From Erysipelothrix inopinata (lineage in GTDB: Bacteria; Bacillota_I; Bacilli_A; Erysipelotrichales; Erysipelotrichaceae), in assembly GCF_014396165.1 (NCBI RefSeq), contig NZ_CP060715.1:2100001-2132000 (forward strand): 32,000 nucleotides of DNA, read 5' to 3'. This document shows, in pieces, positions 3,453 to 27,066 of this stretch; position 1 is the stretch's first letter; the number at the start of each line of letters is the position of its first letter. A model generated the notes under the pieces. That model saw only the letters and a program-made list of their open reading frames with translations, had not been told where the DNA came from and made no database searches. A program made the translations under genes and the position numbers.

Positions 3453-3529
3453 GACTTCACCATCCTTAATTCATTCTTATTTTATACTGTTTAGGCCCTA
3501 AACACAACCTAAAGATTGTAACTTTTAAA

Positions 3530-3755
3530 AGACCCAGAAGGGTGATATATTGTCCCTGTTTCTTACAGGTGGGTATCCTGTTCACTAATTTCTGGGATTC
3601 TGATATAAATACCAGTATTCACACTGTTAGTGGTACGTCCGGATTCCCTTATATCAAAGTGTCGGAAAAATATTTAGACCTTCTAGGTACTACTATTATA
3701 TCACACTTTTTTGTCTTTCGTGATATACTATATAAGAAAAATAACGAGGTGACGT
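3530..3755 (+). promoter_or_regulatory. possible T-box-like leader of proS (uncertain)
   Basis: The gap upstream of proS is 303 nt and non-coding. It has a Stem-I-like hairpin, CCCAGAA (3533-3539) paired with TTCTGGG (3590-3596), with a CCU Pro triplet at 3577-3579 on its 3' side. A motif UUAGUGGUACGUCCGG (3627-3642) resembles the T-box core AAUUAGGGUGGUACCGCG, including UGGU. No canonical terminator or Stem III was found. Confidence 0.35.
3695..3703 (-). promoter_or_regulatory. candidate extended -10 promoter (TGATATAAT) pointing toward yneF
   Basis: The minus strand reads TGATATAAT, an exact TGnTATAAT. The -35 is weak (TCACGA at 3718-3723). The transcription start would fall near 3688, about 236 nt upstream of the yneF ATG. 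Confidence 0.4.
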
Positions 3756-5477: not shown

Positions 5478-7566
5478 ATTGTTTACGTTTTCTTTCTAAA
5501 TAGATTGCTGCACTACCTAATGATAGTGTTGCGGCACCTACAATCAAGGAAGCATTAATCGGATCAACACCTGTTCCAGGAAGTTTTCCTTTATCCTTCT
5601 CTTTATCTTTTTCTACTTCTGGTGTTGGATCTTCTGGTTTTTCTGTTTCTGGATCCTTAGGTTCTTCTATTTTCTTGAGATCAACAATGCTTTGTTTTAA
5701 TTGAGTTGCTGCATCATCGATCATTTCTTGAGTAATAATTTCATCTTCATCAATATTGTCGAGTAAGAGTGTCTTCGCATGCTCAAGGTTTTTAATGACT
5801 GCATCATAACTTTCTTTCGTATACAATGTTGCATCAAGTGCCTCTGCTTCTTTAATCAACTGATCAAGAACATCATAATCTAAGAGTGCATGGTTGTAGT
5901 CTCTTTCTAACATCGTCAGTAAACGATAAGGTTTTAACTCAGCATCATACAATTCCCAATCAACAGCGTTATTGTTCTTGAGATAGTCTACAAAAACTCG
6001 ATCGAGTGAAGGACCTTCTTCACGTGCTCCACCCAGCATGCTATATCCATCTCCACCTGCTGCTAAGAAATCATTGGTTGCCATATAATAAGTTTTGTTT
6101 AAATCAAGAGGTAAGAACTCGTCGGCTTTACCATCATAGATATATACACCCAGTACACGACTTCCTGGTTCTTTCGTTGTATCATAAATAACACGAATCG
6201 TATTTGATACATGCAAGTATCCACCATTAGGTGAAATTAATGGCATGCCATGTGCGTCAAGTTCTTCGGTTGTTGTCGTTCGAACAGAATGTTCAAACAT
6301 TTGTAAGATTTGGGTACCCGTAACTTGAATCTGACTGGTGATATTTCCAAACGGTAGGACACCAATGATATCTCCTTCAGTCACAACACCTGGTTTAATA
6401 TCTTTACGAATTCCCCCACCATTAATCATTGCGAAATCAGTAGGATTTCTAAATCCTTCTTTACCATACGCTACCATTGCATCTGTAATAACATTTCCAA
6501 GGTTTGTTTCACGAGTTCTTACGAATTCACGCTGTCCGTTAAAATGAATCTTATTGTCATTAAGGACAACCCCTGATACGGATTCCTTAAATCCTTCGTA
6601 AGCATCATCAATTAATCCTTTCACGACAGGATCCGGTTCTGCAAGATCTTTCGTGATTGGTATGAGTTTTGCGGTAGAGTTTTTAAAGTTTGTAAGGTTT
6701 AAATTCACAACACCTAAATTGTTGAGATGTTCTCCTGTTTGAACAAGAATTACATTATCACCTTTGAAGATTCCTTTTTCAATTGGAGTATGTGAGTGAC
6801 CGTCTACAATAATAATTGGTTTATCTTTCAACTTAGGATTTGCTGCAAGACTTTCTGCAAGTGTGTCTGAACGCCATTCTGTTTTGGTTTCTTTATCGAT
6901 TCCAAGATGCGTTAAAACAACAAAGAAGTCAGCATCTTGATGTTCCGCTTTTTCAAGCTCTTCTGTTACAGCCGGAATCGGCTCTTTCCATTTAATTCCT
7001 TCAATATTCTTAGGGTGTGTTTTAGTGTGTGTTTCAGGTGTTGTTGCACCTGTTACCACAATTTTATAATTATCCTTCATTAAAGTTTGTGATTGACCGT
7101 TTTGAATATCTAAAGTAACCGTTGGTTTAAACAAAAGTGAATTATCATTATACACAGTATTCGATGAAAGTAATGGGAAGTCGAGTACTTTTCCAAATCC
7201 ATCTTCTTTACCAAGAGCGACTGCCGAACCGAAATCAAATTCATGATTTCCTACGACCATAGCATCATACCCAACTTCATTCATAATTCGAGCCATATCA
7301 GCTCCCTTACTTGCATTAGAAATTGGTAACCCTTGGAAGGCATCCCCACCATCAAACATTAGCAGAGGTTTAATATTGTCTTTATATCCCTTAACTCTCG
7401 CCAGGGCATACAAGCCATCACTTGGCTCAATACGTCCATGCATATCATTCGTATGCATGATCGTTACAATATCATCCTCTGATGCACCCACAGCCATTGG
7501 GACTGCCGATGTACCAAACAGAAACAATACTAAAATAAGTACTAAACTCTTAAAGCTTTTCTTCAT
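5476..7566 (-). CDS. cell-wall-anchored 5'-nucleotidase / 2',3'-cyclic-nucleotide phosphodiesterase family protein (LPXTG)
   Basis: 696 aa. Signal peptide present. Calcineurin-like metallophosphatase motifs (HTNDMHGR, GGDAFQG, GNHEFD). The 5'-nucleotidase C-terminal domain is followed by a Pro/Glu/Lys spacer and LPGTG plus a hydrophobic stretch and a KRKQ tail. Confidence 0.85.
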   Translation of the reverse strand: MKKSFKSLVLILVLFLFGTSAVPMAVGASEDDIVTIMHTNDMHGRIEPSDGLYALARVKGYKDNIKPLLMFDGGDAFQGLPISNASKGADMARIMNEVGYDAMVVGNHEFDFGSAVALGKEDGFGKVLDFPLLSSNTVYNDNSLLFKPTVTLDIQNGQSQTLMKDNYKIVVTGATTPETHTKTHPKNIEGIKWKEPIPAVTEELEKAEHQDADFFVVLTHLGIDKETKTEWRSDTLAESLAANPKLKDKPIIIVDGHSHTPIEKGIFKGDNVILVQTGEHLNNLGVVNLNLTNFKNSTAKLIPITKDLAEPDPVVKGLIDDAYEGFKESVSGVVLNDNKIHFNGQREFVRTRETNLGNVITDAMVAYGKEGFRNPTDFAMINGGGIRKDIKPGVVTEGDIIGVLPFGNITSQIQVTGTQILQMFEHSVRTTTTEELDAHGMPLISPNGGYLHVSNTIRVIYDTTKEPGSRVLGVYIYDGKADEFLPLDLNKTYYMATNDFLAAGGDGYSMLGGAREEGPSLDRVFVDYLKNNNAVDWELYDAELKPYRLLTMLERDYNHALLDYDVLDQLIKEAEALDATLYTKESYDAVIKNLEHAKTLLLDNIDEDEIITQEMIDDAATQLKQSIVDLKKIEEPKDPETEKPEDPTPEVEKDKEKDKGKLPGTGVDPINASLIVGAATLSLGSAAIYLERKRKQ

Positions 7567-7586
7567 TTGTATTTCCTCCTATTCTC

Positions 7587-7615
7587 AAGATACACTGTAA
7601 ACGCTTTCAAATCAA
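7587..7615 (-). promoter_or_regulatory. candidate sigma-A promoter of the 5'-nucleotidase gene
   Basis: Minus strand reads TTGATT (7615-7610), a 17-nt spacer, then TATCTT (7592-7587). It lies about 20 nt upstream of the AGGAGG SD. Confidence 0.3.
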
Positions 7616-7752
7616 GTCCTTCTTTAAATGTTTCATAATCTGTCTATTAAAAAAAAAGATAAATGAAGATGGAAAATGTGAAAAATAACACGCCTAACTC
7701 GTTGATATAGTCACTATAATATGTTAATCTAGTTTTAGAAACTAGGTGACAC

Positions 7753-8283
7753 ATGAAAGAACAAGAAATCTGGATAAAAGATCTCGAAAATTTGCATTTG
7801 CCTCGTTTTAACGAACTACCGCAAATACCTTTATATTTAGATCAAGTTATCGAATATACTAACACTCAATTGAATGTTTTATTTCAGTTTGAGGAATCAA
7901 TTTTAACACGGTCAATGGTTAATAATTATGTTAAACACAAGATGATGCCTGCTCCGCAAAAGAAGCGATATCAGCAAGAACATCTCGTCTATATTATTAC
8001 CATTTCGATTCTAAAATCGATATTTAGTATCGGAAACATATCGAGTGGGATTGAGGGAGCATTAAATCAGTACGATATTGATGTTGCCTACGATATGTTT
8101 GTGGAATCCATTGAAGAGAGTTTAAAAATGTTGGTCAATGAATTGTATCAATATGACTTAAAGCTTGAAACAACTGAGCGCATTCGAACCCCACTAAAGG
8201 CAGCAACTCTTGCATTTGCTGCGAAAATTCTTGCCAATTATACATTTAATGCCTATGTGCAAAAGGAGAACACTCATGAGTGA
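7753..8283 (+). CDS. DUF1836 domain protein
   Basis: 176 aa. The blocks LPQIPLYLDQVIEY...LTRSMVNNYVKHKMMPAPQKKRYQQEHLVYII match what I recall for DUF1836. It sits in the usual position immediately upstream of a DegV gene. Confidence 0.75.
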   Translation: MKEQEIWIKDLENLHLPRFNELPQIPLYLDQVIEYTNTQLNVLFQFEESILTRSMVNNYVKHKMMPAPQKKRYQQEHLVYIITISILKSIFSIGNISSGIEGALNQYDIDVAYDMFVESIEESLKMLVNELYQYDLKLETTERIRTPLKAATLAFAAKILANYTFNAYVQKENTHE

Positions 8284-9127
8284 AAAAATAGCTATCGTCG
8301 TTGATTCAGGATCCGATGTAAACAAGAAATTTAAAGATCAATATAATATCAAAAGCTTGCCCCTACGAATCAATATTGAGGGAAAAGAATATATTGATGG
8401 TGTTGATATTGAAATGGCAGAAGTTTTAAGAAGACTTGAAGAAACAAAAGTAACTACTTCCCTTCCTTCCGGTCAAGACATTGTGGATGCTTTAGAAGCA
8501 CTCAAAAACGAGGGATACACTCATGTGATTGTCGTTACGATTTCTTCGGGTTTAAGCGGAACTTACAATGCAATCCGTAATATAAGTAATGATATTGACG
8601 GACTTACAGTATCCGTATTTGATACTAAAAACATCAGCTTGGGTAGTGGTCATCTCGCAATTCGCGCTGCACAAAACGTTGAAAAAGGCATGTCATTTGA
8701 TGACGTTGTTAACGACTTGCATGCGTCAATCAATCAATCAAAAGTATTCTTCACTGTCGGATCTCTTGATTACCTCATTCGTGGTGGACGTATTGGTCAT
8801 GTAGCAGGAACAGTTGCGAACATCTTAAATATTAAACCAATCATCTCATGTAACGAAGAAGGAATTTATCATACTGTAGATAAAGTACGTGGTGAACGAC
8901 GTGTTATTAAGAAAATGATCGAAGCATGTGTTAGCTTTGCAGAGAATGCAAGTACAAGTAAAATTGAATTACTTACGGCTAATCCAGAAACAAACTATGA
9001 TGAATTGAAAATTTCATTAAAGGAAGCAATTCCATCACTCACAGAGATTGGTATCACCGTTATCTCACCCGCACTTGCAATCCATACAGGACCTGAAGTA
9101 CTTGGTATTTCAATTATAATCGACTAA
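8276..9127 (+). CDS. degV: DegV family fatty-acid-binding protein
   Basis: I prefer the ATG at 8276, with SD AAAGGAGA 7 nt upstream, giving MSEKIAIVVDSGSDV. This start overlaps the DUF1836 stop by 8 nt. The track ORF start at 8210 lies inside the upstream gene. Confidence 0.9.
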   Translation: MSEKIAIVVDSGSDVNKKFKDQYNIKSLPLRINIEGKEYIDGVDIEMAEVLRRLEETKVTTSLPSGQDIVDALEALKNEGYTHVIVVTISSGLSGTYNAIRNISNDIDGLTVSVFDTKNISLGSGHLAIRAAQNVEKGMSFDDVVNDLHASINQSKVFFTVGSLDYLIRGGRIGHVAGTVANILNIKPIISCNEEGIYHTVDKVRGERRVIKKMIEACVSFAENASTSKIELLTANPETNYDELKISLKEAIPSLTEIGITVISPALAIHTGPEVLGISIIID

Positions 9128-13249: not shown

Positions 13250-13384
13250 ATACGAACACCTAAGCATGATCATTGAGTTTTGTACTCAATATAATAGAGA
13301 AACACTCTGTAATACATTGTATCACAATAATAAGCTCACACATAATTAATTAACCGTCATTTAGGAAAGTTTTATATTAAATGA

Positions 13385-13413
13385 AACACTCTCCATCACT
13401 GATGAAGAGTGTT
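13385..13413 (-). terminator. intrinsic terminator of the adhesin operon
   Basis: Minus strand reads AACACTCT-(13 nt)-AGAGTGTT, starting 3 nt after the stop codon and followed by a T-rich tail (TCATTTAATAT). Confidence 0.55.
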
Positions 13414-13415
13414 CT

Positions 13416-16400
13416 TTAATCTCGTTTTCTTGTCCATTTTGAGAGGAAGTACAAAACAATTCCCATCAGTGACAATTCAAATCCTAGGGATTGAATCCTT
13501 CCTGCAATTCCTGTATTAGGAAGGATATCCTTTGTATTTGAGTGCGGACTCTTATTTGCACCCAGTACATAGGGGTTATTGGGATTTCTTGGATCAAATG
13601 GTGTATTCGAATGATTCGTGTTAGAACCCTCTTTTCCATTGAGCCATTCTTGGTATTCCTCGGGCGTCATTTCACTGACATCAATATCAGAGCGTGTGAA
13701 TTTGTGAGTTACTTGATTTCCTTGGATGTTTCTTTGATAACCTGGCAAGTATGTGAGAACTTCGATTCGATATTCAAAAGGATTGCCACTCTTATCATTA
13801 GTTGGCAAATAAGACCATGTGTAATGGGAGAGCCCCTCTTTCAACCAAATCGGATTGCCAAAGGGTTCTTCATTTTGGAGTAGTTGAATTTCAATATCGG
13901 GTTTCTGTTTAAAATCACCCAACCATTGACTGAAAACTGTGTAATCTTTCAACTTAGGAATGTATGTATTGATTACCAGATTGTTGTAGATACTTGTTTT
14001 AAAGTCAGGATGTTCATTTACTTGGATAACATGATACTCATAGCGATTTCCTTCATAATCTTCTTTAGGAATGTTATGCCATTGATATTGACTCATCTCA
14101 TTCGAAATCTCCACAACATCACCGTAAGGATTATTATTACGCATTAATTGAAGCTTGATCACTGGTTTTGTTTTAGGACTGTTAACCCAAATCAACTTAG
14201 CCTCATAACTTGTTACTTCTTTTCGATAGGTATTAGTAATGATATTTTCATGAACTGATTTTTGATATCCATGAGGTACATTCACTTCATCAACATGATA
14301 GCGGTACTTCTTACCTTGTTCATCTTGTAAAGGTAAATCTTGCCATTGGTACTCTAATATACCAGATTTTAATGTTATAGGTTTTCCGTAAGCAACATCA
14401 TCACGATAAAGTTGAACTTGAATATCCGGTTTAAGTGTGGGTCCGCCCTGCCATTTTTTAATGACTGTGTAGTTTGTTTTTAAGTTTCGAAGTGAGTGTA
14501 CAAAGGTTACATCATGATTACCGCGAGTGATGACTCCCTTTATTACGCGACTGTGCGGTATTGGACTATATGTATCATTTGCTAAAACTTCAACTTGATA
14601 GTTCATTCCTTGAGTCAATCCCAAAATCTCAATAGATTCATAGCTATTAAAGAATACCAATCCTGAATCAGTATCCATTTCTTGGTTAAAATGTGGATTA
14701 CGAATATCTTTCTTAACATAAGATCCTCTGTAAGGCTTACCGTTAATTAAAATTCGATATACGAAGTTATCATTGTTAAAGTAAAACTTTTGATCAGTAT
14801 CACGAAGCTTGTTATGAATGGTTAAACGTGATGATTCAACATAAAAACCACCATTAATTGTGTCTGTCATCGTTTCTTCATCAAGATTAATGCGTTCTGA
14901 GATTCCCGCATGATCGATAGTTGATCCATTCACATCAATGTTTTTATCCGTAACATGATATCCGTCAGGAACTTCAAAAACAACCCTGTAAGCTCCCTTT
15001 GTGTACACTGGAAGTGTATACTTCCCTAGAGAATCCGTTTGAGTTTCATACACGTTGCCCCATGGATCCAAGGTCGGGTTAAGTTCTTCATCAACTAACT
15101 TTACATTGAGATTAGATAAAGGAACATCATTGGTATCAAAAACACCATTACGATTCGTATCCTCGAAAGCCAACCCATTGACACTGTATTTTACGTAACG
15201 AACTTCAGATATGTTTGATTCAAAGAAATCTAAAGTAGGGGTTGTCGCAATCGCATAAGAGCTTAATGCCCGTGAGCCTTCATCATAATCACCAATGGTA
15301 CGTAGTTTGATTTCAAAATCGATATTCGTGACTTTTCCAAGTGACGCCGAATCTTTTAATTCAATTTTGATTGCCGTTGCCTGTGTGTAATCATCAAGAC
15401 TTTGTTGCCAGTGAGCCTCTCTAACAAAATCACTTTCATCTTGGGTGTAAGCATCTTGGGTATACGATACAGTAAATCCGTCAGGAACACTTACGGGTTC
15501 TGCGAGCCGAAGTGTCATTTCTGAGTAAAAGGTATTTGGATCTAAATTACGATCAATCATGGCTTCGTTCACACTCAATTGACCTTCGGTTGGAAATACT
15601 TTTAGAAGAGTAAATGTATCAATCGGGTCTTCTGAATTATTAAATACTGAAAGAAGATATGAAATGTCTTGGTCTTGCTCGGTTCGTGCTTCTCCTGGCG
15701 GAAGCAGATGATGTTGGTCAAGATTCCCACGAACTCTTTGCGTAAGAATGACTTCTCGCGTCGCTATATAACGAATCGTTCGGCGACTGCTTGAAATTTG
15801 TGCTTCTTGATTTAAGTTGAGTTTGTAGATATCGTCAGTTACATTCATATTATTGCTGTTTGACTGATAGGGTTTAATGACATCACTATTCGTCCAGGTC
15901 AGATACGATTCGTTTTCATTATCACCCATAGCCGTCATTTTTCCAATTTGAAGTTGATACGTAACTTCAGAAAATGTAGAAAGAGATGTTGACAAGAGTC
16001 CCGTATGTTCAACAGTTTCCAAGTTCCAAACTAATGCGGTTTTACCACTGTTTTTATAGTTAGGAATAACTGTGGGTTCTGATTTAACCTTACCGTTACT
16101 TTTTACTATATTAAAGAATTTCACACTTCCTGAGCCTTCTACATAGCTCATACCTTGTGGAATAAAATCCACGACAGTTAAATTATCGAGAGTCTGCTTA
16201 TTGTCTAACATGGTTCCTCGAATTTTCAACTTATAGGATACAGTATCATTCAGAAAATAACTAATTTGTGGCATATCAATTTCTTTTTGAATTCCAACTG
16301 ATGGATCAACCTTCATAATCGTTAAGGTATCGCTACTACTTTTGGATACCATTTGTCCATTTTGGAGTCTTCCAGTAACAGCAGCATAGTTATGAAGTGA

Positions 16401-17228
16401 ACGACGTGACTCATGTTGGGATAAAATGTTTGATGCCGTATCTCTGAAGTCAGTGAGAACATAAAATTCTATATTTTTACCACCTTCAAGAAAACTGCCT
16501 TCTGTAAAACTAATTTCTATCGAATCAATATCATCATTCTGAAATGATACAGTTTCTTTTCCTGTCGGATACCAATTAGACTTCACACGAGTTTTTCTTT
16601 GGTCTTTAGAGATGACATCAATATTAAAACTACCAATAAATCCATTCAATGAATTACTATCAAACTGAAGACCCGTATATTTTAAATGACTATCGAGATT
16701 GTAATCACGAATAATGACATCGCGTAAACGGTTGTTTGGGGTAGGCTGGGCACTGTTATTCAGTCGGATACGCCATTGCCCTACTTTTTCCTTTGACTGC
16801 GTAGCATCAAAGTATGTGCCTGCTCCATACTTATAAAAACTAATCGGATCTTGTACTGCTGGAATATCCGCCTTTAATCGAAAGGTTGACGGTGTTTCCC
16901 AAACAAGTGGCGCCTCATTCATACCTCTGTCTTTTTGGTAAGCTGTAATTTTCAAACTTCCTTCTATCGTTGAATCAATTTTTCCGTTGGGAAACTTAAG
17001 ATTTAGAGGTTCTGTACTCGATTTTGACTTAGAACCCATAACAATCGGAGATTGAGGTTCATCAACATAGGTAACAGTTCGTTTCTTTTCATCATAGCTC
17101 CAATTTTTATTAGCTTCTTGGCTAAAGAATGCTCCATCAGGTAATTGATATTCAATCACAATTTTTTCAAACTCCCGATTTCCCCAAGTATTTGATACAT
17201 TGGGTGAAAGTTGGTAGGCAAACTTCAC
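13416..17228 (-). CDS. LPXTG cell-wall-anchored adhesin, C-terminal 1270-codon fragment (no signal peptide of its own)
   Basis: C-terminal sorting signal: LPNTG (13509-13523), a hydrophobic stretch, then KWTRKRD. It has three Cna-B-type repeats, an SdrD-B-like block (NGLAFEDTNRNGVFDTNDVPL...TDSLGKYTL) and a DUF11-like block (LTVVDFIPQGMSYVEGSG). The track start is a GTG, and the frame is actually open upstream to 17294. Confidence 0.85.
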   Translation of the reverse strand: MKFAYQLSPNVSNTWGNREFEKIVIEYQLPDGAFFSQEANKNWSYDEKKRTVTYVDEPQSPIVMGSKSKSSTEPLNLKFPNGKIDSTIEGSLKITAYQKDRGMNEAPLVWETPSTFRLKADIPAVQDPISFYKYGAGTYFDATQSKEKVGQWRIRLNNSAQPTPNNRLRDVIIRDYNLDSHLKYTGLQFDSNSLNGFIGSFNIDVISKDQRKTRVKSNWYPTGKETVSFQNDDIDSIEISFTEGSFLEGGKNIEFYVLTDFRDTASNILSQHESRRSLHNYAAVTGRLQNGQMVSKSSSDTLTIMKVDPSVGIQKEIDMPQISYFLNDTVSYKLKIRGTMLDNKQTLDNLTVVDFIPQGMSYVEGSGSVKFFNIVKSNGKVKSEPTVIPNYKNSGKTALVWNLETVEHTGLLSTSLSTFSEVTYQLQIGKMTAMGDNENESYLTWTNSDVIKPYQSNSNNMNVTDDIYKLNLNQEAQISSSRRTIRYIATREVILTQRVRGNLDQHHLLPPGEARTEQDQDISYLLSVFNNSEDPIDTFTLLKVFPTEGQLSVNEAMIDRNLDPNTFYSEMTLRLAEPVSVPDGFTVSYTQDAYTQDESDFVREAHWQQSLDDYTQATAIKIELKDSASLGKVTNIDFEIKLRTIGDYDEGSRALSSYAIATTPTLDFFESNISEVRYVKYSVNGLAFEDTNRNGVFDTNDVPLSNLNVKLVDEELNPTLDPWGNVYETQTDSLGKYTLPVYTKGAYRVVFEVPDGYHVTDKNIDVNGSTIDHAGISERINLDEETMTDTINGGFYVESSRLTIHNKLRDTDQKFYFNNDNFVYRILINGKPYRGSYVKKDIRNPHFNQEMDTDSGLVFFNSYESIEILGLTQGMNYQVEVLANDTYSPIPHSRVIKGVITRGNHDVTFVHSLRNLKTNYTVIKKWQGGPTLKPDIQVQLYRDDVAYGKPITLKSGILEYQWQDLPLQDEQGKKYRYHVDEVNVPHGYQKSVHENIITNTYRKEVTSYEAKLIWVNSPKTKPVIKLQLMRNNNPYGDVVEISNEMSQYQWHNIPKEDYEGNRYEYHVIQVNEHPDFKTSIYNNLVINTYIPKLKDYTVFSQWLGDFKQKPDIEIQLLQNEEPFGNPIWLKEGLSHYTWSYLPTNDKSGNPFEYRIEVLTYLPGYQRNIQGNQVTHKFTRSDIDVSEMTPEEYQEWLNGKEGSNTNHSNTPFDPRNPNNPYVLGANKSPHSNTKDILPNTGIAGRIQSLGFELSLMGIVLYFLSKWTRKRD
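13689..14474 (-). repeat. three tandem ~87-aa Cna-B-type domain repeats inside the adhesin (protein-level repeats, diverged at DNA level)
   Basis: Repeat 1 is NYTVIKKWQGGPTLKPDIQVQLYRDD...YRYHVDEVNVPHGYQ. Repeat 2 is SYEAKLIWVNSPKTKPVIKLQLMRNN...YEYHVIQVNEHPDFK. Repeat 3 is DYTVFSQWLGDFKQKPDIEIQLLQNE...FEYRIEVLTYLPGYQ. Confidence 0.7.
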
Positions 17229-17242
17229 AAAACTAAGCTCAT

Positions 17243-18283
17243 TTAAATCAAGACTAAGGTAACCTGGGTTAGATTTACTTTCAATCCCCCGACACTATCC
17301 CGACCATTAAGATTATTATTGATTCGACTTGTAAGGTTGAGTGATTGAGTTTGTAGTGTAATTGTTTCTGTTGTTTCAGCTAAGATGCTTTGATCTGCAT
17401 CATTTTTAAGGGTAGCTTCAATGTTTAACGAATGCTTGTCAGGAGTTTTTCCATTTAACATTTTAAATTTGAACGGTAAGTCCATAGAAACACCGGACGC
17501 TACTGGAAAGTTCCAATATCGTATTATTACAAATTCTTCTTCAATACGTACCTTTTTTTCATGCTCACTGTTCATATCTGAAATAACAAGAGATTCCACA
17601 TCTAAATAAGTTTTTGGAATTTTTATCTCAAGTGTTGCATGATTCATGGTTCCACTATCGCGTCCCAAAGACATGCCCACATACATAAGAATTTCTTCCC
17701 CAGAATAATAAGTATCTTTAGAAGCTTCAGGTTTAAGAGTAAAACGCGAAATCTTCACGGGTAAGTCTAAGTGTGTTTCATCTTGATCATCAAGAGTTGG
17801 AAGTGAAATGCGAAAAGGTTCAAACTCTTTGGAGATTGAACTCAAATCTAAAATTAAATTATCTTGATCTAAGAACTCGTCACTGAGGTGTGCACTCAGT
17901 AATATTGTTCCAGATGTTATTTTTTCCTTTAAATTTAAAGAAACACTAAGCTTATTTTCAACTAGCTGAACACCTGAATCCGATTCCTTAAGTTTTACGT
18001 TAATTAATGACTTAGGTAACGCGACTTCATAGTATGAATCGGATTCGATGGCTTTAGAAGTATCGTCATCTAAGTTCCATTTAAGTTCTATTTCTAAGTG
18101 TGCATCCTTATGGTCATCTTCAACCACATCAATTTTATACTCTTTAAATAAAGAACGCTGTAAGTCATTAATGTCTTGAGTACTATTTTTATTTTCATCT
18201 GCATAAACACTGATATTTGCTGTGAAAAGTGCCACAATTAGCGTGAAAATAAGCAAACTTCTGCTCTTTTTAAAATGCTTCAT
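17243..18283 (-). CDS. N-terminal fragment of the same adhesin (signal peptide plus ~300 aa)
   Basis: I prefer the ATG at 18283, with SD GAAGGGGA upstream, giving MKHFKKSRSLLIFTLIVALFTANISVYADE, a typical signal peptide. The track start at 18358 would overlap the sigma gene. The fragment ends in a short out-of-frame tail (LKVNLTQVTLVLI*). Confidence 0.75.
   Translation of the reverse strand: MKHFKKSRSLLIFTLIVALFTANISVYADENKNSTQDINDLQRSLFKEYKIDVVEDDHKDAHLEIELKWNLDDDTSKAIESDSYYEVALPKSLINVKLKESDSGVQLVENKLSVSLNLKEKITSGTILLSAHLSDEFLDQDNLILDLSSISKEFEPFRISLPTLDDQDETHLDLPVKISRFTLKPEASKDTYYSGEEILMYVGMSLGRDSGTMNHATLEIKIPKTYLDVESLVISDMNSEHEKKVRIEEEFVIIRYWNFPVASGVSMDLPFKFKMLNGKTPDKHSLNIEATLKNDADQSILAETTETITLQTQSLNLTSRINNNLNGRDSVGGLKVNLTQVTLVLI
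17286..17290 (-). other. G5 (C5 on plus strand) homopolymer at the junction of the two adhesin reading frames
   Basis: The two frames are both open only across 17243-17294. The G5 run is the only homopolymer there, and adding one G fuses the frames (...NGRDSVGG-IESKSNPGYLSLDLNELSFVKFAYQL...). Confidence 0.6.
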
Positions 18284-18299
18284 AGTCATCCCCTTCATC

Positions 18300-19931
18300 T
18301 CATTGATCCCAGTGTATTGCATCGTTACCCAAATAGTTTTTAAGGTTGAAGGATGCATCTTTAGAAACTGCTGATGTTACATCGAGATTATCACTTGATT
18401 CGATTGGAATCTTAACAAGTATCCCTAAGTAAACTGGTATCGTATTTGCGTCAATTTGATATTCCACATAACCATATCGATATTTTGAATCTGTACCAAT
18501 ATGAGTTGTCATTTTTCGATAAGTACTTCCTGCATCAAAAGTAAGTAAATTCCCTTCAACATCACGTTGATTTTGATTTAGATACATCTCTAATATGCTT
18601 GTGTCGGACAAGTAAGCATCTACAAAATTTTTAACATCTTTAACATATGAAATATCACCACTCGGCTTCGATGATGTGACTTGATTATTTTCTTTTAAAT
18701 TTGAAACAGTATAATCCCATGTTTTTTTCTTCAGTACATAATTTTCATGTGCTGGAGCTTGAGCCTCAAAGGAAATCGTTTCGTTATTTTTTAGTTTTGT
18801 ATTTTTATTTGAATTTATTTTAATTGATTGTAAATATTGATTTAAACCAACATCTTGAGTTGGTTTAAGGGCAAGCGCCAATACCGCATTACCACTCGTT
18901 CCAGTAATACGAATGTCTAGGTATTCGATAAGGTTAACTTCTGATTGTGTCATTAAAGTAACCGGCTCATCGGGGGAATGATGAGTTATCGTTGAATTAT
19001 TCGTAGTACTGGGGAGCGATTGATCGTCATACACTTCCTGGTTATCTGAAAGTGTATTCTCGTATGACGTTTTTGTATCGATATAAGGCAATGAGAATGG
19101 ATCATCTTGCGGCATTATCATATTCATAAACAATGTTAAGGAACAAGCAGTGACAACAAATGTCTGAACTGTCTGACTGAATTGATTTGAATTGTGCTTA
19201 AGAATTAAATTATCAGTCGCACCAGACATCGCGCCATTCAAACTCTGAGTTATGTTTTGAAAGACCATACCTGAATCAAAGGGAATTATGTTTGGAGAAG
19301 CCTTCATACCTGCTATGAAGAACACAAGTGGATTGAATCCATAGAGATGGAAGCCATCGCCTTCTGCTGCTTCTAAAAGGTGCTTAATCTTTTCTTTAGC
19401 ATACCGTAATCGGCTTTTAATTGAGTTCTCACTTACATTTAAAGATTCAGCTATTTCACGTGTCGTCATATCCTCAAAATAGAACATCATCACACATAAA
19501 CGTTGGTCTTCAGGAATTTGAAATAATACTTCTTGAATTACATTGGTAACTTCTTGGTTTCCAGCAAAAATATCAGGTCGATCAAAAGTATGAGTGTCTT
19601 TAACTTCATATGTATAATCTTGATCGGATTCTTTAACAAGATCTGTAAACAGGTTCGGTTTTTTCTTCTTTAAGAAATCCTTTGCTTTATTAGAAGCAAT
19701 ACGATTCACCCATGCTTGGAAATTATCGAGATCATCGAGTTGATCAATATTTTCAAACGCACTGATATAAGTATCTTGGACAAGGTCTTGTACAGTATGG
19801 TGATTACGTACGAGTCTCGAAATAATATAAAATACCATTTTGTGTGTTTCATTATAAAGTTCTTCAAAGTCTTTTGGTCTATCAGATTTAATACTCTTTG
19901 CATCCTTGGAAACTGACATTCTTATCCCCAT
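18300..19931 (-). CDS. ECF-type sigma-70 family factor fused to a transmembrane segment and a C-terminal extracytoplasmic domain of unknown family
   Basis: 543 aa. Region 2 reads DLVQDTYISAFENI...FQAWVNRIASNKAKDFL. The region 4 HTH reads EDMTTREIAESLNVSENSIKSRLRYAKEKI. There is no region 3. A hydrophobic helix TVQTFVVTACSLTLFMNMIM covers aa ~254-273, followed by ~270 Asn/Ser/Thr-rich residues. Confidence 0.8.
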   Translation of the reverse strand: MGIRMSVSKDAKSIKSDRPKDFEELYNETHKMVFYIISRLVRNHHTVQDLVQDTYISAFENIDQLDDLDNFQAWVNRIASNKAKDFLKKKKPNLFTDLVKESDQDYTYEVKDTHTFDRPDIFAGNQEVTNVIQEVLFQIPEDQRLCVMMFYFEDMTTREIAESLNVSENSIKSRLRYAKEKIKHLLEAAEGDGFHLYGFNPLVFFIAGMKASPNIIPFDSGMVFQNITQSLNGAMSGATDNLILKHNSNQFSQTVQTFVVTACSLTLFMNMIMPQDDPFSLPYIDTKTSYENTLSDNQEVYDDQSLPSTTNNSTITHHSPDEPVTLMTQSEVNLIEYLDIRITGTSGNAVLALALKPTQDVGLNQYLQSIKINSNKNTKLKNNETISFEAQAPAHENYVLKKKTWDYTVSNLKENNQVTSSKPSGDISYVKDVKNFVDAYLSDTSILEMYLNQNQRDVEGNLLTFDAGSTYRKMTTHIGTDSKYRYGYVEYQIDANTIPVYLGILVKIPIESSDNLDVTSAVSKDASFNLKNYLGNDAIHWDQ

Positions 19932-19933
19932 TC

Positions 19934-20077
19934 CTAATTTCCACCGTTATCCGGTTCTAACATTCTTTCAAGGGCCGCTAATATTTCTATCCACATTTGT
20001 TGGCGATAATCATCACTGACTTGGAATTCAGCAAGATCCTCTAACAATAATGCTTTAATTGCATCGTCATTCATCAT
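19934..20077 (-). CDS. 47-aa acidic hypothetical protein, first gene of the sigma/adhesin operon
   Basis: Too short for the ORF track. My translation is MMNDDAIKALLLEDLAEFQVSDDYRQQMWIEILAALERMLEPDNGGN*. A perfect AGGAGG SD sits 2-5 nt upstream of the tandem ATGs. The TAG stop lies 2 nt before the sigma-gene ATG. Confidence 0.45.
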   Translation of the reverse strand: MMNDDAIKALLLEDLAEFQVSDDYRQQMWIEILAALERMLEPDNGGN

Positions 20078-20232: not shown

Positions 20233-20257
20233 AAAAAAAACGGTACCGAAGTACCGT
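20233..20257 (-). terminator. intrinsic terminator, probably the original rny-ymdB terminator displaced by the IS
   Basis: Minus strand reads ACGGTAC-TTCG-GTACCGT followed by T8. It lies 6 nt from the left end of the IS. Confidence 0.7.
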
Positions 20258-20263
20258 TGGCAC

Positions 20264-20284
20264 TGACCTAGTTTAGTGGGACAC
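20264..20284 (+). repeat. IS left inverted repeat
   Basis: TGACCTAGTTTAGTGGGACAC. Confidence 0.8.
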
Positions 20285-20361
20285 AATAAAAAAAGAAGCA
20301 CCTTGTATTCGTACAATCGTTGTTAGACAATGACAAGTACAATAGGAGGTGCTTTTATATT

Positions 20362-20682
20362 ATGGCTAAGAAAAACAATTATTACCCTCTAGAGGTTAAA
20401 CTAGAAGCAATCAAGCTCAAAGAAGAGGGATACAGCGTAAAAGAAATTCAGGTGATGTTAGATATTAAAAGTGAATCGCAAGTATACACTTGGTACTACT
20501 GGTATCGTGATGGTGAAATTGAGAGATTGTCACAGTCACCTGGACAACAATATAGTTATGGTCATGGACCAACTGACAGGTCGAAAGAAGAAAGTTTAGA
20601 AATTAAAAACAAAATATTGGAGAATCAAATAAAGATATTAAAAAAGTACAAAGAGAAGGAAAGGAAGTGGTACCACAAATAA
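20362..20682 (+). CDS. IS3-family transposase OrfA (HTH)
   Basis: ATG at 20362 with AGGAGG upstream, giving MAKKNNYYPLEVKLEAIKLKEEGYSVKEIQ... A leucine-zipper-like C-terminus follows. The track start at 20320 is a TTG inside the IS leader. Confidence 0.85.
   Translation: MAKKNNYYPLEVKLEAIKLKEEGYSVKEIQVMLDIKSESQVYTWYYWYRDGEIERLSQSPGQQYSYGHGPTDRSKEESLEIKNKILENQIKILKKYKEKERKWYHK
20640..20646 (+). other. programmed -1 ribosomal frameshift site A AAA AAG
   Basis: The heptamer is in the correct phase with orfA (TTA AAA AAG). Reading in the -1 frame gives KKVQREGKEVVPQIIIE..., continuous with orfB. Confidence 0.75.
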
Positions 20683-21524
20683 TCATTGAGATTGTAAATG
20701 AATTCAAGGATTTGATGCCAATTAAGTTAATTCTAGAGTTATTTGATATTCCTCGATCAACATACTACAGATGGAAAAACAAAATAGAAGTAAATGAAAT
20801 TTCTTATAATGAGAGAATAGTAATATCAAAATGCAAAGAAACGAATTATGAATATGGTTATCGTACAATAAAAGGAATACTTAAAGACGAAGGAAACCAT
20901 TTAAATAAAAATACTGTTCAGAGAATTATGCAAAAATTCAATCTACAATGTAGGGTTAAACCTAAGAAAGTTAAACACGTTAAAGGAAAAGAATCGATTG
21001 TTGCCAGTAATATAATTGATCGTGACTTTACCGCAAATCGTCCATTAGAGAAACTGTCAACGGATATTACATATCTTCCATGGGGAGAAAAAACATTATA
21101 TTTATCTACTATTATGGATCTTTATAATGGCGAAATTATTGCTTTTTCGTTGGACGATACACAGGATACAAATTTTGTGCTGGATACCTTAAATCAACTT
21201 CCTGAAATAAAGCATAGGTGTATACTTCACTCGGATCAAGGAACCGTGTATACATCAAAAATCTATCAGGAAACAGTATATAAAAAGAGCATTACCATGA
21301 GTATGTCCCGAAAAGGCACACCTGCAGATAACGCTCCAATCGAATCGTTTCATTCCACCTTAAAGTCTGAAACGTTCTATCGATATCCAGAACTGAAAAG
21401 TTCCAATGAAATTATATCACAAACTGTGATAAACTTTATTAAACATTATAACAACACACGAGTACAAGCAAAACTGGAATTTAAATCCCCGGTAAAGTAT
21501 CGAGAATCTAGAATCCTAGGTTAA
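20667..21524 (+). CDS. IS3-family transposase OrfB (DDE catalytic domain; expressed as an OrfAB fusion, 20362..21524)
   Basis: Blocks LSTDITYLPW...YLSTIMDLYNGEIIAFSL, HSDQGTVYTS and ADNAPIESFHSTLKSE give the D, D, E spacing typical of the IS3 family. Confidence 0.85.
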   Translation: MVPQIIIEIVNEFKDLMPIKLILELFDIPRSTYYRWKNKIEVNEISYNERIVISKCKETNYEYGYRTIKGILKDEGNHLNKNTVQRIMQKFNLQCRVKPKKVKHVKGKESIVASNIIDRDFTANRPLEKLSTDITYLPWGEKTLYLSTIMDLYNGEIIAFSLDDTQDTNFVLDTLNQLPEIKHRCILHSDQGTVYTSKIYQETVYKKSITMSMSRKGTPADNAPIESFHSTLKSETFYRYPELKSSNEIISQTVINFIKHYNNTRVQAKLEFKSPVKYRESRILG

Positions 21525-21536
21525 TTTTTTTTATGA

Positions 21537-21557
21537 GTGTCTCACAAAACTAGGTCA
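21537..21557 (-). repeat. IS right inverted repeat
   Basis: The reverse complement reads TGACCTAGTTTTGTGAGACAC, matching the left repeat at 19 of 21 positions. Confidence 0.8.
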
Positions 21558-21564
21558 CTTCCGT

Positions 21565-26715: not shown

Positions 26716-27066
26716 TGCATTAACACTCAATAAGCCATGTCCTGTCGTGATAATCATTTATCTGTGAAATATATATTTCACCCTGCTTAATCTTGAATTC
26801 GATCTTGCAAGCTCCCCTACCAATTTTGGGTTTCTCGCTTATGGGGTTTACCTCGTTCCACTTTCACTCTTTCGAATGAAACTTCGTCACTGTGGCACTT
26901 TTATAGTCTCGATCCATAGTTTCCCTTAGGATGTTGATCCGCCGTTATAGATGCCTCTATACCTTGGCTTATTTTTTCACCAAGCACAAACACTACAACC
27001 ATCTCAGATTGTGCGAGCATGGACTTTCCTCTACATTTACATGCAGCGATTATCTTTCGTGTTATT
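26716..27066 (-). ncRNA. rnpB: RNase P RNA (bacterial, Bacillus/type B-like)
   Basis: The minus strand contains the universal blocks GAGGAAAGTCCATGCTCGCAC, AGTGCCACAGTGACGAAG, GTGGAACGAGGTAAACCCC, AGCGAGAAACCCAAA and ACAGGACATGGCTTA, in the same order as B. subtilis rnpB. The P1 helix pairs TAACAC (27064-27059) with GTGTTA (26726-26721). Ends are approximate to about 5 nt. Confidence 0.85.

Follow-up and report, generated by a model that had tools for sequence, protein, structure and literature searches.

An extracytoplasmic function sigma factor fused to a predicted membrane span and a two-domain outer region in Erysipelothrix inopinata, and its relatives across Bacillota

We analysed a 32,000-nucleotide stretch of DNA from Erysipelothrix inopinata (contig NZ_CP060715.1, positions 2,100,001 to 2,132,000; hereafter the window), in which a single open reading frame (ORF) at 18300..19931 on the minus strand encodes a sigma factor that extends far beyond its sigma domain. 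The ORF is uninterrupted, starts with ATG and specifies a protein of 543 amino acids (aa), identical (100%) to an E. inopinata entry at NCBI that carries "sigma-70 family RNA polymerase sigma factor" as its sole annotation. The gene encodes, in order, a sigma domain of the extracytoplasmic function (ECF) type, a linker, a predicted transmembrane (TM) segment and a two-domain ectodomain. An initial annotation of this DNA had described a sigma domain joined in one polypeptide to one hydrophobic span and an extensive outer region without known family, and this arrangement is borne out by our analysis. Below, coordinates refer to the window unless a locus is named, segments of the sigma gene lie on the minus strand like the gene itself, and related loci and family proteins are referred to by L and P numbers, respectively.

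The sigma domain is of normal size for an ECF factor. Region 2 occupies aa 25-91 (19659..19859; Pfam Sigma70_r2, PF04542, E = 4e-14) and its structure resembles that of SigW and sigmaE. Region 4 follows at aa 132-184 (19380..19538; Pfam Sigma70_r4_2/r4, PF08281 and PF04545, E = 8e-13). About 40 residues separate the two, and no Pfam match to region 3 was found in the 543-aa protein. The sigma70-ECF model TIGR02937 spans aa 21-185 with a score of 99 bits against a cut-off of 42.9. The protein therefore has the composition of an ECF (group 4) factor, with regions 2 and 4 present and regions 1 and 3 absent, and Pfam and TIGR02937 agree on this point with what had been read by eye. Bacillus subtilis SigW is the nearest solved relative of the sigma domain by sequence (E = 3e-21), and the N-terminal part of the AlphaFold model superposes on SigW, AlgU and sigmaE. 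All of the named Bacillota ECF equivalogs, including SigW, SigM, SigX, SigY and SigZ, scored far under their NCBIfam cut-offs (88 bits against 209 for SigW, and 59 bits against 260 for SigX). Judged by these profiles, the protein is an ortholog of no named Bacillota ECF factor.

Directly after region 4 lies an aromatic and proline-rich motif, GFHLYGFNPLVFFIAGMKASPN (aa 192-213, 19293..19358), which was delimited from the family alignment and table. Its consensus across the family is G-x-K-L-Y-x-L-A-P-l-P-F and it is in frame in all relatives. The AlphaFold model places a helix at aa 201-211 of this motif (pLDDT, the predicted local distance difference test score, of about 75), followed by a stretch from aa 213 to 327 in which the pLDDT is below 50 throughout. 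On the Wimley-White octanol scale, the membrane partitioning of the motif equals or exceeds that of the TM segment in several relatives, and on the Hessa (translocon) scale it is not TM-like. We read the motif as an interfacial or docking helix. A variable linker joins it to the TM segment, and the ratio of non-synonymous to synonymous substitution (dN/dS) over motif and linker is 0.07 in comparison with a 93% identical ortholog. The initial annotation had advised a check of the reads around nucleotides (nt) 19300-19400 for a hidden stop or frameshift. The concern is answered, as this stretch encodes the in-frame family motif and the ortholog has no indel there.

The single predicted TM segment covers aa 254-273 (19113..19172) and was assigned from the hydrophobicity peak, the flanking charges and family equivalence. 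It is the sole hydrophobicity peak of the protein, with a Kyte-Doolittle 19-mer value of 1.60 and a Wimley-White octanol value of -7.1 kcal/mol; the uncorrected Hessa sum is +3.2. Thus, the single peak at nt 19113-19172 stands as first described, while the words "strongly hydrophobic" do not, since the segment is only moderately hydrophobic and the weakest of its family. Every family member has a TM segment at the equivalent position, and in the E. inopinata protein the segment shows zero non-synonymous changes relative to the 93% identical ortholog. The flanks carry a net charge of +1 before the segment and -3 after it. Across the family they are positive before the segment in all listed members but one, and mostly neutral or negative after it. 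From these flanking charges and the family conservation we infer an N-in/C-out topology, in which the sigma domain would be cytoplasmic. Gly, Ser and Thr are abundant in the TM segments of the family, each of which has 4-8 small or helix-weakening residues, a composition that is compatible with site-2 protease substrates but no proof of it.

The outer region begins with a Ser/Thr/Asn/Asp-rich spacer (aa 274-328, 18948..19112), which is probably disordered on the basis of its composition and a pLDDT below 50. Two folded modules follow. D1 (aa 329-412, 18696..18947) is beta-rich in the AlphaFold model (pLDDT 76-90) and is captured by a profile hidden Markov model (HMM). D2 (aa 426-543, 18303..18656) is modelled as two helices followed by an antiparallel sheet (pLDDT 60-82). 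The D1 HMM finds one copy in the E. inopinata protein and two copies each in P0003, P0004 and P0007. The D2 HMM matches only sigma factors of the Erysipelothrix clade, all of which have an adhesin neighbour. The initial annotation had spoken of a 270-aa outer domain that matched no family by eye. The lack of a family holds against Pfam, NCBIfam, PDB sequences and Foldseek, and the single domain gives way to a spacer of about 55 aa plus D1 plus D2.

We searched widely for relatives of this region. No match to aa 190-543 was found in Pfam, NCBIfam or PDB sequences, and a D1-D2 profile search of PDB sequences returned nothing. A word-indexed homolog search with the C-terminal 270 aa alone returned zero sequences, the protein itself included. 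An exhaustive phmmer search of 1.8 billion representatives with the C-terminal region recovered only the protein itself and one eukaryote-like Fn3 repeat protein, which we rejected as spurious because its score is inflated by repeats. Foldseek against the PDB gave no significant match for the outer domains. The weak echoes for D2 were to the alpha+beta folds of PsbP, DUF1795, DcrB and NTF2-like proteins (best E = 0.012), and we take them as a hint only. The ectodomain of the sigma factor shows no similarity to the neighbouring adhesin.

The reading frame is held intact beyond this strain. The ortholog at L004, from a metagenome-assembled genome (MAG) and 93% identical at the protein level, has the same 543 codons with zero indels. 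Comparison of the window with L004 by the Nei-Gojobori method gave a whole-gene dN/dS of 0.16, made up of 0.08 for the sigma domain, 0.07 for the linker, 0 for the TM segment, 0.27 for D1 and 0.16 for D2. Since dN/dS is low in every segment, the entire sigma reading frame is held by selection.

Upstream of the sigma gene we found a small acidic ORF of 47 aa, MMNDDAIKALLLEDLAEFQVSDDYRQQMWIEILAALERMLEPDNGGN (19934..20077, minus strand), which is preceded by an AGGAGG ribosome-binding site and stops 2 nt before the sigma ATG. It is unannotated, has no TM segment, no Pfam match and no detectable similarity to known anti-sigma families. We trained an HMM on five such ORFs, from the window, L088, L090, L006 and L008, whose own matches are expected. 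The model matched upstream of fused sigma genes at six loci, of which L004 alone is new beyond the training set. An independent match lies downstream of the Globicatella sigma gene (L002 10036-10161; also L003), with E = 7e-7 among 20,341 ORFs. The small ORF abuts or overlaps the sigma start in the window, L004, L088, L006 and L008, and lies 33 nt upstream in L090. It thus spans relatives of Erysipelothrix and a Lachnospiraceae genome, and within the Erysipelothrix clade it usually precedes the sigma gene. It is absent or unrecognisable upstream at L001, L005, L007, L009, L011 and L012, which make up about half of the loci that we examined. The 47-aa protein is possibly a soluble partner of the sigma factor, either an anti-sigma factor or a helper.

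Downstream of the sigma gene, ORF analysis and Pfam identify an LPXTG adhesin gene (13416..18283, minus strand) encoding a signal peptide, an SdrD_B domain, three Cna_B domains and an LPNTG sorting signal. The gap from the sigma stop to the adhesin start codon is 16 nt. No anti-sigma gene follows the sigma gene and the adhesin is the next gene, as the initial annotation stated, yet the small ORF lies upstream. A terminator scan places a terminator-like hairpin of ymdB at 20239..20258 (minus strand), which is conserved in L004 and marks the upstream edge of the operon control region, and a second one right after the adhesin stop (13384..13414, minus strand), at the operon end. The same scan found no terminator-like site at the 16-nt junction, and weaker internal matches inside the adhesin gene. 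Because terminator-like sites flank the gene set and none lies at the junction, a single operon is suggested. Searches with Rfam found no riboswitch or other Rfam element within it. A promoter similarity that we noted by eye around GTTATATTAGTG at three loci failed in pairwise local alignment against shuffled controls, where the sole alignment with z > 3 was an AT-rich stretch. A possible TAAAAC-N17-CGTTA element lies upstream of the small ORF, and the other loci give no support for it.

Two lesions distinguish this locus from that of the L004 ortholog. In the adhesin gene, one nucleotide is deleted next to a G5 run near 17288, which splits the coding sequence into ORFs of 371 and 1270 aa; the adhesin ortholog at L004 is one ORF of 1622 aa. 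The frameshift may be genuine, may reflect phase variation or may be a miscalled homopolymer. The second is an IS3-type insertion sequence (IS) of about 1.3 kb (20259..21560), which separates ymdB from its terminator. It has terminal inverted repeats TGACCTAGTTTnGTGnGACAC and, on the plus strand, two transposase ORFs that overlap; it is absent from the L004 locus. The control region of about 160 nt before the small ORF is intact despite this element. The first reading of the sequence had overlooked the frameshift, along with the small acidic ORF and the motif after region 4.

The pairing of sigma gene and adhesin gene is conserved. A Cna_B/SdrD_B LPXTG adhesin gene is adjacent to the sigma gene at all five of the Erysipelothrix-clade loci (window, L004, L001, L088 and L090), and these are precisely the loci with a D2-bearing sigma factor. 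At L004 the sigma gene is followed by the gene for the 1622-aa SdrD_B/Cna_B protein, and at L001, from Erysipelothrix anatis, by one for a 1650-aa SdrD_B/Cna_B protein in another chromosomal context. At L088 the order is small ORF, sigma gene and SdrD_B/Cna_B protein gene, and at L090 it is a gene for a Cna_B-type LPSTG protein, then the small ORF and the sigma gene. The pairing occurs in at least two genomic contexts, L088 and L090 being short contigs with their own gene order. A sigma factor paired with an adhesin, which the initial annotation had considered unusual, is thus the rule in this close clade.

The architecture recurs well outside this clade. We count at least 33 Bacillota proteins in which the sigma domain is followed by the motif, a single TM segment and an outer domain that varies between members. 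Of these, 28 came from a first homolog search; they are 350-808 aa long, have the N-terminal sigma domain in common and end in long tails. Their sources include Erysipelothrix anatis, Globicatella sulfidifaciens and many gut metagenomes. A scan of a genome collection, which returned mostly generic ECF factors, added members from MAGs of Lachnospiraceae, Oscillospiraceae and Clostridia; among the matches listed, only the top five loci belong to the family. A profile search with the family alignment, in which 8000 candidates were compared, brought in no further members. In the common layout, the hydrophobic span lies 60-150 aa past the motif and is followed by a further 100-500 aa. The outer tails differ: D1/D2 modules are found in the Erysipelothrix clade, BspA-type leucine-rich repeats at L009 and L010, Cys-rich repeats in P0024 and Thr-rich stalks in P0028. 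From sequence comparison, the fused architecture is a recurrent Bacillota design and no peculiarity of the E. inopinata genome, so that a membrane-tethered sigma factor is not the oddity in this phylum that it was initially taken to be.

Several members of the family have features of their own. An extra N-terminal zinc ribbon (CxxC...CxxC) precedes the sigma domain in P0011, P0012 and P0026 and at L008, L011 and L012. L005, a metagenomic contig of 12.5 kb, carries two paralogous fused sigma genes (1-643 and 6001-7650), which suggests that some genomes have several fused sigma factors. At L006 the genes around the sigma gene resemble those of mobile elements (ArdC-N, an integrase-like gene, NERD and an HTH repressor), and some sigma cassettes may travel on integrative elements.

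The neighbours of the more distant sigma genes also tend to encode surface or exported proteins. At L007 the gene after the sigma gene encodes an LRR_5/Big_2 surface protein, and at L008 and L012 the products of the downstream genes have a signal peptide or a TM segment. At L009, from a Clostridia MAG, the leucine-rich-repeat ectodomain of the sigma factor shares 52% identity with a lipoprotein whose gene comes next (E = 4e-49; 6901-8100 and 8211-8864), and on the strength of this identity the sensor and its neighbour are paralogs. The D1 module is found in small secreted proteins or lipoproteins that flank the Globicatella sigma gene on both sides (L002 7520-7930 and 10139-10534), and in a 386-aa protein encoded three genes downstream of the L006 sigma gene (L006 6652-7827). 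The external domain of the sigma factor can thus be a paralog of the secreted protein next door (L009) or share modules with it (Globicatella).

We compared this architecture to known sigma factor systems. In B. subtilis, SigW is an envelope-stress ECF factor whose single-pass membrane regulator, RsiW, is removed by regulated intramembrane proteolysis. SigW is the closest to the E. inopinata protein by sequence and fold, but there the anti-sigma factor is a protein of its own, distinct from the sigma factor. Clostridia and Bacilli also have SigI/RsgI systems, in which the sigma factor for genes of secreted or surface proteins is under the control of a single-pass membrane protein with a sensing domain outside the cell. 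RsgI, however, is not fused to its sigma factor and acts through an RsgI_N anti-sigma domain, while SigI falls outside the ECF class; a Pfam match to RsgI_N was not found in the E. inopinata sigma protein.

Closer in design are the sigma factors that carry their regulator in the same chain. IutY of Pseudomonas putida, an ECF243 sigma/anti-sigma hybrid, is cut by Prc and then by RseP, which frees the sigma part; truncated IutY is constitutively active, and among fused sigma factors it alone has a mechanism that has been demonstrated. One chain runs from an N-terminal ECF domain through a single membrane span to an extracytoplasmic C-terminal domain in both IutY and, by prediction, the E. inopinata protein. 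They differ in that IutY has a FecR-type anti-sigma part and works with a TonB-dependent outer-membrane receptor in Gram-negative iron signalling, whereas the E. inopinata protein has no FecR Pfam match, its host has no outer membrane, its partner gene encodes an adhesin and the other neighbours are housekeeping genes. For the ECF52 factor SCO4117 of Streptomyces coelicolor, positive autoregulation and release by an unidentified protease have been proposed, with a similar model for ECF48 and ECF53. These groups likewise combine a sigma domain, a TM region and a large external domain. Unlike the present family, they are restricted to Actinobacteria and contain a ZAS zinc-finger anti-sigma module, a proline-rich stretch and a carbohydrate-binding module. 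The HxxxCxxC (ZAS) motif is absent from all family proteins P0001-P0029, no carbohydrate-binding Pfam domain was found in the family, and the E. inopinata protein has no zf-HC2 Pfam match and only two Cys residues (146 and 263). Nor does it have a Pfam match to a SnoaL or TPR C-terminal domain of the ECF41, ECF42 or ECF56 type; a hydrophobic span is present instead. Described ECF groups with a known extension, soluble in the ECF41/42 type and membrane-spanning in actinobacteria, had been cited in the initial annotation as the known cases, and the protein does not match their defining features.

One described Bacillota group may be relevant. A review lists ECF262 (Ruminococcus albus; ECF classification 2.0) with a regulatory extension whose mechanism is unexplained. 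The likeness is that of a Bacillota ECF factor with an extension, by description only, and the fused family may or may not equal ECF262. In functional terms, the E. inopinata protein belongs to the class that unites a sigma domain, a TM segment and an extracytoplasmic domain without a separate anti-sigma gene, its topology being predicted from the flanks and the family. Such a chain is already known from IutY, ECF52, ECF53 and ECF48, so that the variant is new and the principle is not. The literature that we searched does not describe membrane-anchored sigma factors of Bacillota in association with adhesins. Nor does it mention the conserved motif that follows region 4, the small ORF as a partner or the sharing of ectodomain modules with neighbouring secreted proteins.

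We propose that the E. inopinata protein is a one-component transmembrane sigma factor, with a cytoplasmic sigma domain and D1-D2 as a sensor outside the membrane, which controls its own adhesin operon and is freed by regulated proteolysis. The proposal is based on the predicted cytoplasmic ECF domain, the span, the external domain, the lack of an anti-sigma gene, the linkage to genes for exported proteins and a module that appears to move as a unit, and we give it an even chance of being correct. Small ORF, sigma gene and adhesin gene most likely form a mobile three-gene module whose transcription is driven by the sigma factor. In such a mechanism, the sigma domain would be held inactive at the membrane, to which the motif after region 4 may contribute. 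An external cue at D1-D2 would trigger a cut outside the membrane, and a site-2 protease of the RasP/RseP type would then cut within the Gly/Ser/Thr-rich TM segment. The liberated sigma domain would bind RNA polymerase and turn on the operon. By the precedent of IutY and ECF52, release is probably by cleavage. The initial annotation had gone further and taken activation by cleavage as implied by the architecture. Cleavage is one possible reading by analogy, and a sigma factor that is active while tethered is another.

A number of observations weigh against the proteolytic model. The TM segment of the E. inopinata protein is the least hydrophobic in the family (range 1.6-2.6), and AlphaFold left aa 254-273 unmodelled (pLDDT about 23). 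Neither a protease gene, a cleavage-site motif nor an anti-sigma domain was detected. No shared promoter motif was found upstream of the operons, and for this reason autoregulation and control of the adhesin are unproven inferences from gene layout. Conservation of the small ORF hints at a soluble partner, for which release by proteolysis offers no explanation. Finally, the frameshift in the adhesin gene may mean that the circuit is currently not working in this E. inopinata strain.

If the sigma factor were active while tethered, it would remain unreleased, and the linker of about 65 aa would give it the reach to recruit membrane-proximal RNA polymerase, much as membrane-bound regulators of the ToxR/CadC type do. 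The ectodomain would then tune activity by conformation or oligomerisation, coupling transcription of the adhesin gene to the site of export. The long, low-confidence linker between region 4 and the TM segment would suit such an arrangement, as would the lack of a detected cleavage motif or anti-sigma domain, and ectodomains homologous to neighbouring secreted proteins suggest protein-protein sensing over degradation. We nevertheless consider it unlikely, given that the conserved hydrophobic motif by region 4 has more the look of an element for docking or inhibition. To our knowledge, no membrane-tethered sigma factor works unreleased. IutY, the characterised fused sigma factor, is processed.

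Alternatively, the switch itself could be soluble. The 47-aa protein would act as a mini anti-sigma or anti-anti-sigma factor, of the two-helix NepR type, together with the motif after region 4, and the TM segment and ectodomain would localise the sigma factor or adjust its level. The strong constraint on the motif is in keeping with this, as is the conservation of the small ORF family, which abuts or overlaps the sigma start at the five loci named above. However, about half of the loci examined have no recognisable small ORF upstream, in Globicatella it follows the sigma gene, and its product has no detectable similarity to any known anti-sigma family, all of which makes a soluble switch rather improbable.

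The two lesions at the locus raise the question of whether the module is a relic in this strain, in which the sigma gene has no working role. The IS3-type element (20259..21560) is missing from the ortholog locus and the 1-nt deletion splits the adhesin gene, as expected of decay. Against this, the sigma ORF is intact and under purifying selection, the IS lies upstream of the ymdB terminator hairpin with the control region of about 160 nt unchanged, and the frameshift sits beside a G5 run, where a sequencing error or a phase-variable tract is possible. We regard decay of the locus as very improbable. An artefactual fusion, in which sequencing or assembly error merged a sigma and an anti-sigma gene, has nothing in its favour beyond the unusual ORF length and is for practical purposes refuted, as the independent assembly with 93% identity has the identical uninterrupted 543 codons and more than 30 relatives of many sources share the fusion with the motif in frame after region 4.

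Returning to the transmembrane sigma factor that we propose for E. inopinata, a wider reading extends it to the family. The fused sigma factors could be a Bacillota-wide, undescribed family of surface-sensing cassettes, each made up of a small acidic partner, a membrane sigma factor with a built-in control motif and a cognate surface protein. In this view, the external domain is often a paralog of the secreted protein encoded alongside or has modules in common with it. Through these cassettes, the cell would gauge the state of its own surface protein, or of the ligand of that protein, and would adjust expression directly, without a separate anti-sigma factor. We offer this wider reading tentatively, as a possibility that we rather doubt.

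Sensor-fused sigma factors are the least understood branch of the ECF family and the sole demonstrated mechanism is from a Gram-negative bacterium. The family described here would give a Gram-positive model whose output, the adhesin operon, is readable. Its genus counts the animal pathogen Erysipelothrix rhusiopathiae among its species, and related sigma factors are numerous in gut Clostridia. Experimental handles are offered by the motif that follows region 4, by the small ORF and by the shared ectodomain modules.

Three RNA features were also recorded in the window with Rfam. An rli23-like antisense RNA lies within the IS3-type element (21322-21419). RNase P RNA class B (26728-27062, minus strand, 264 bits) and 6S RNA (3527-3692, minus strand, 52 bits) are housekeeping RNAs unrelated to the sigma factor.

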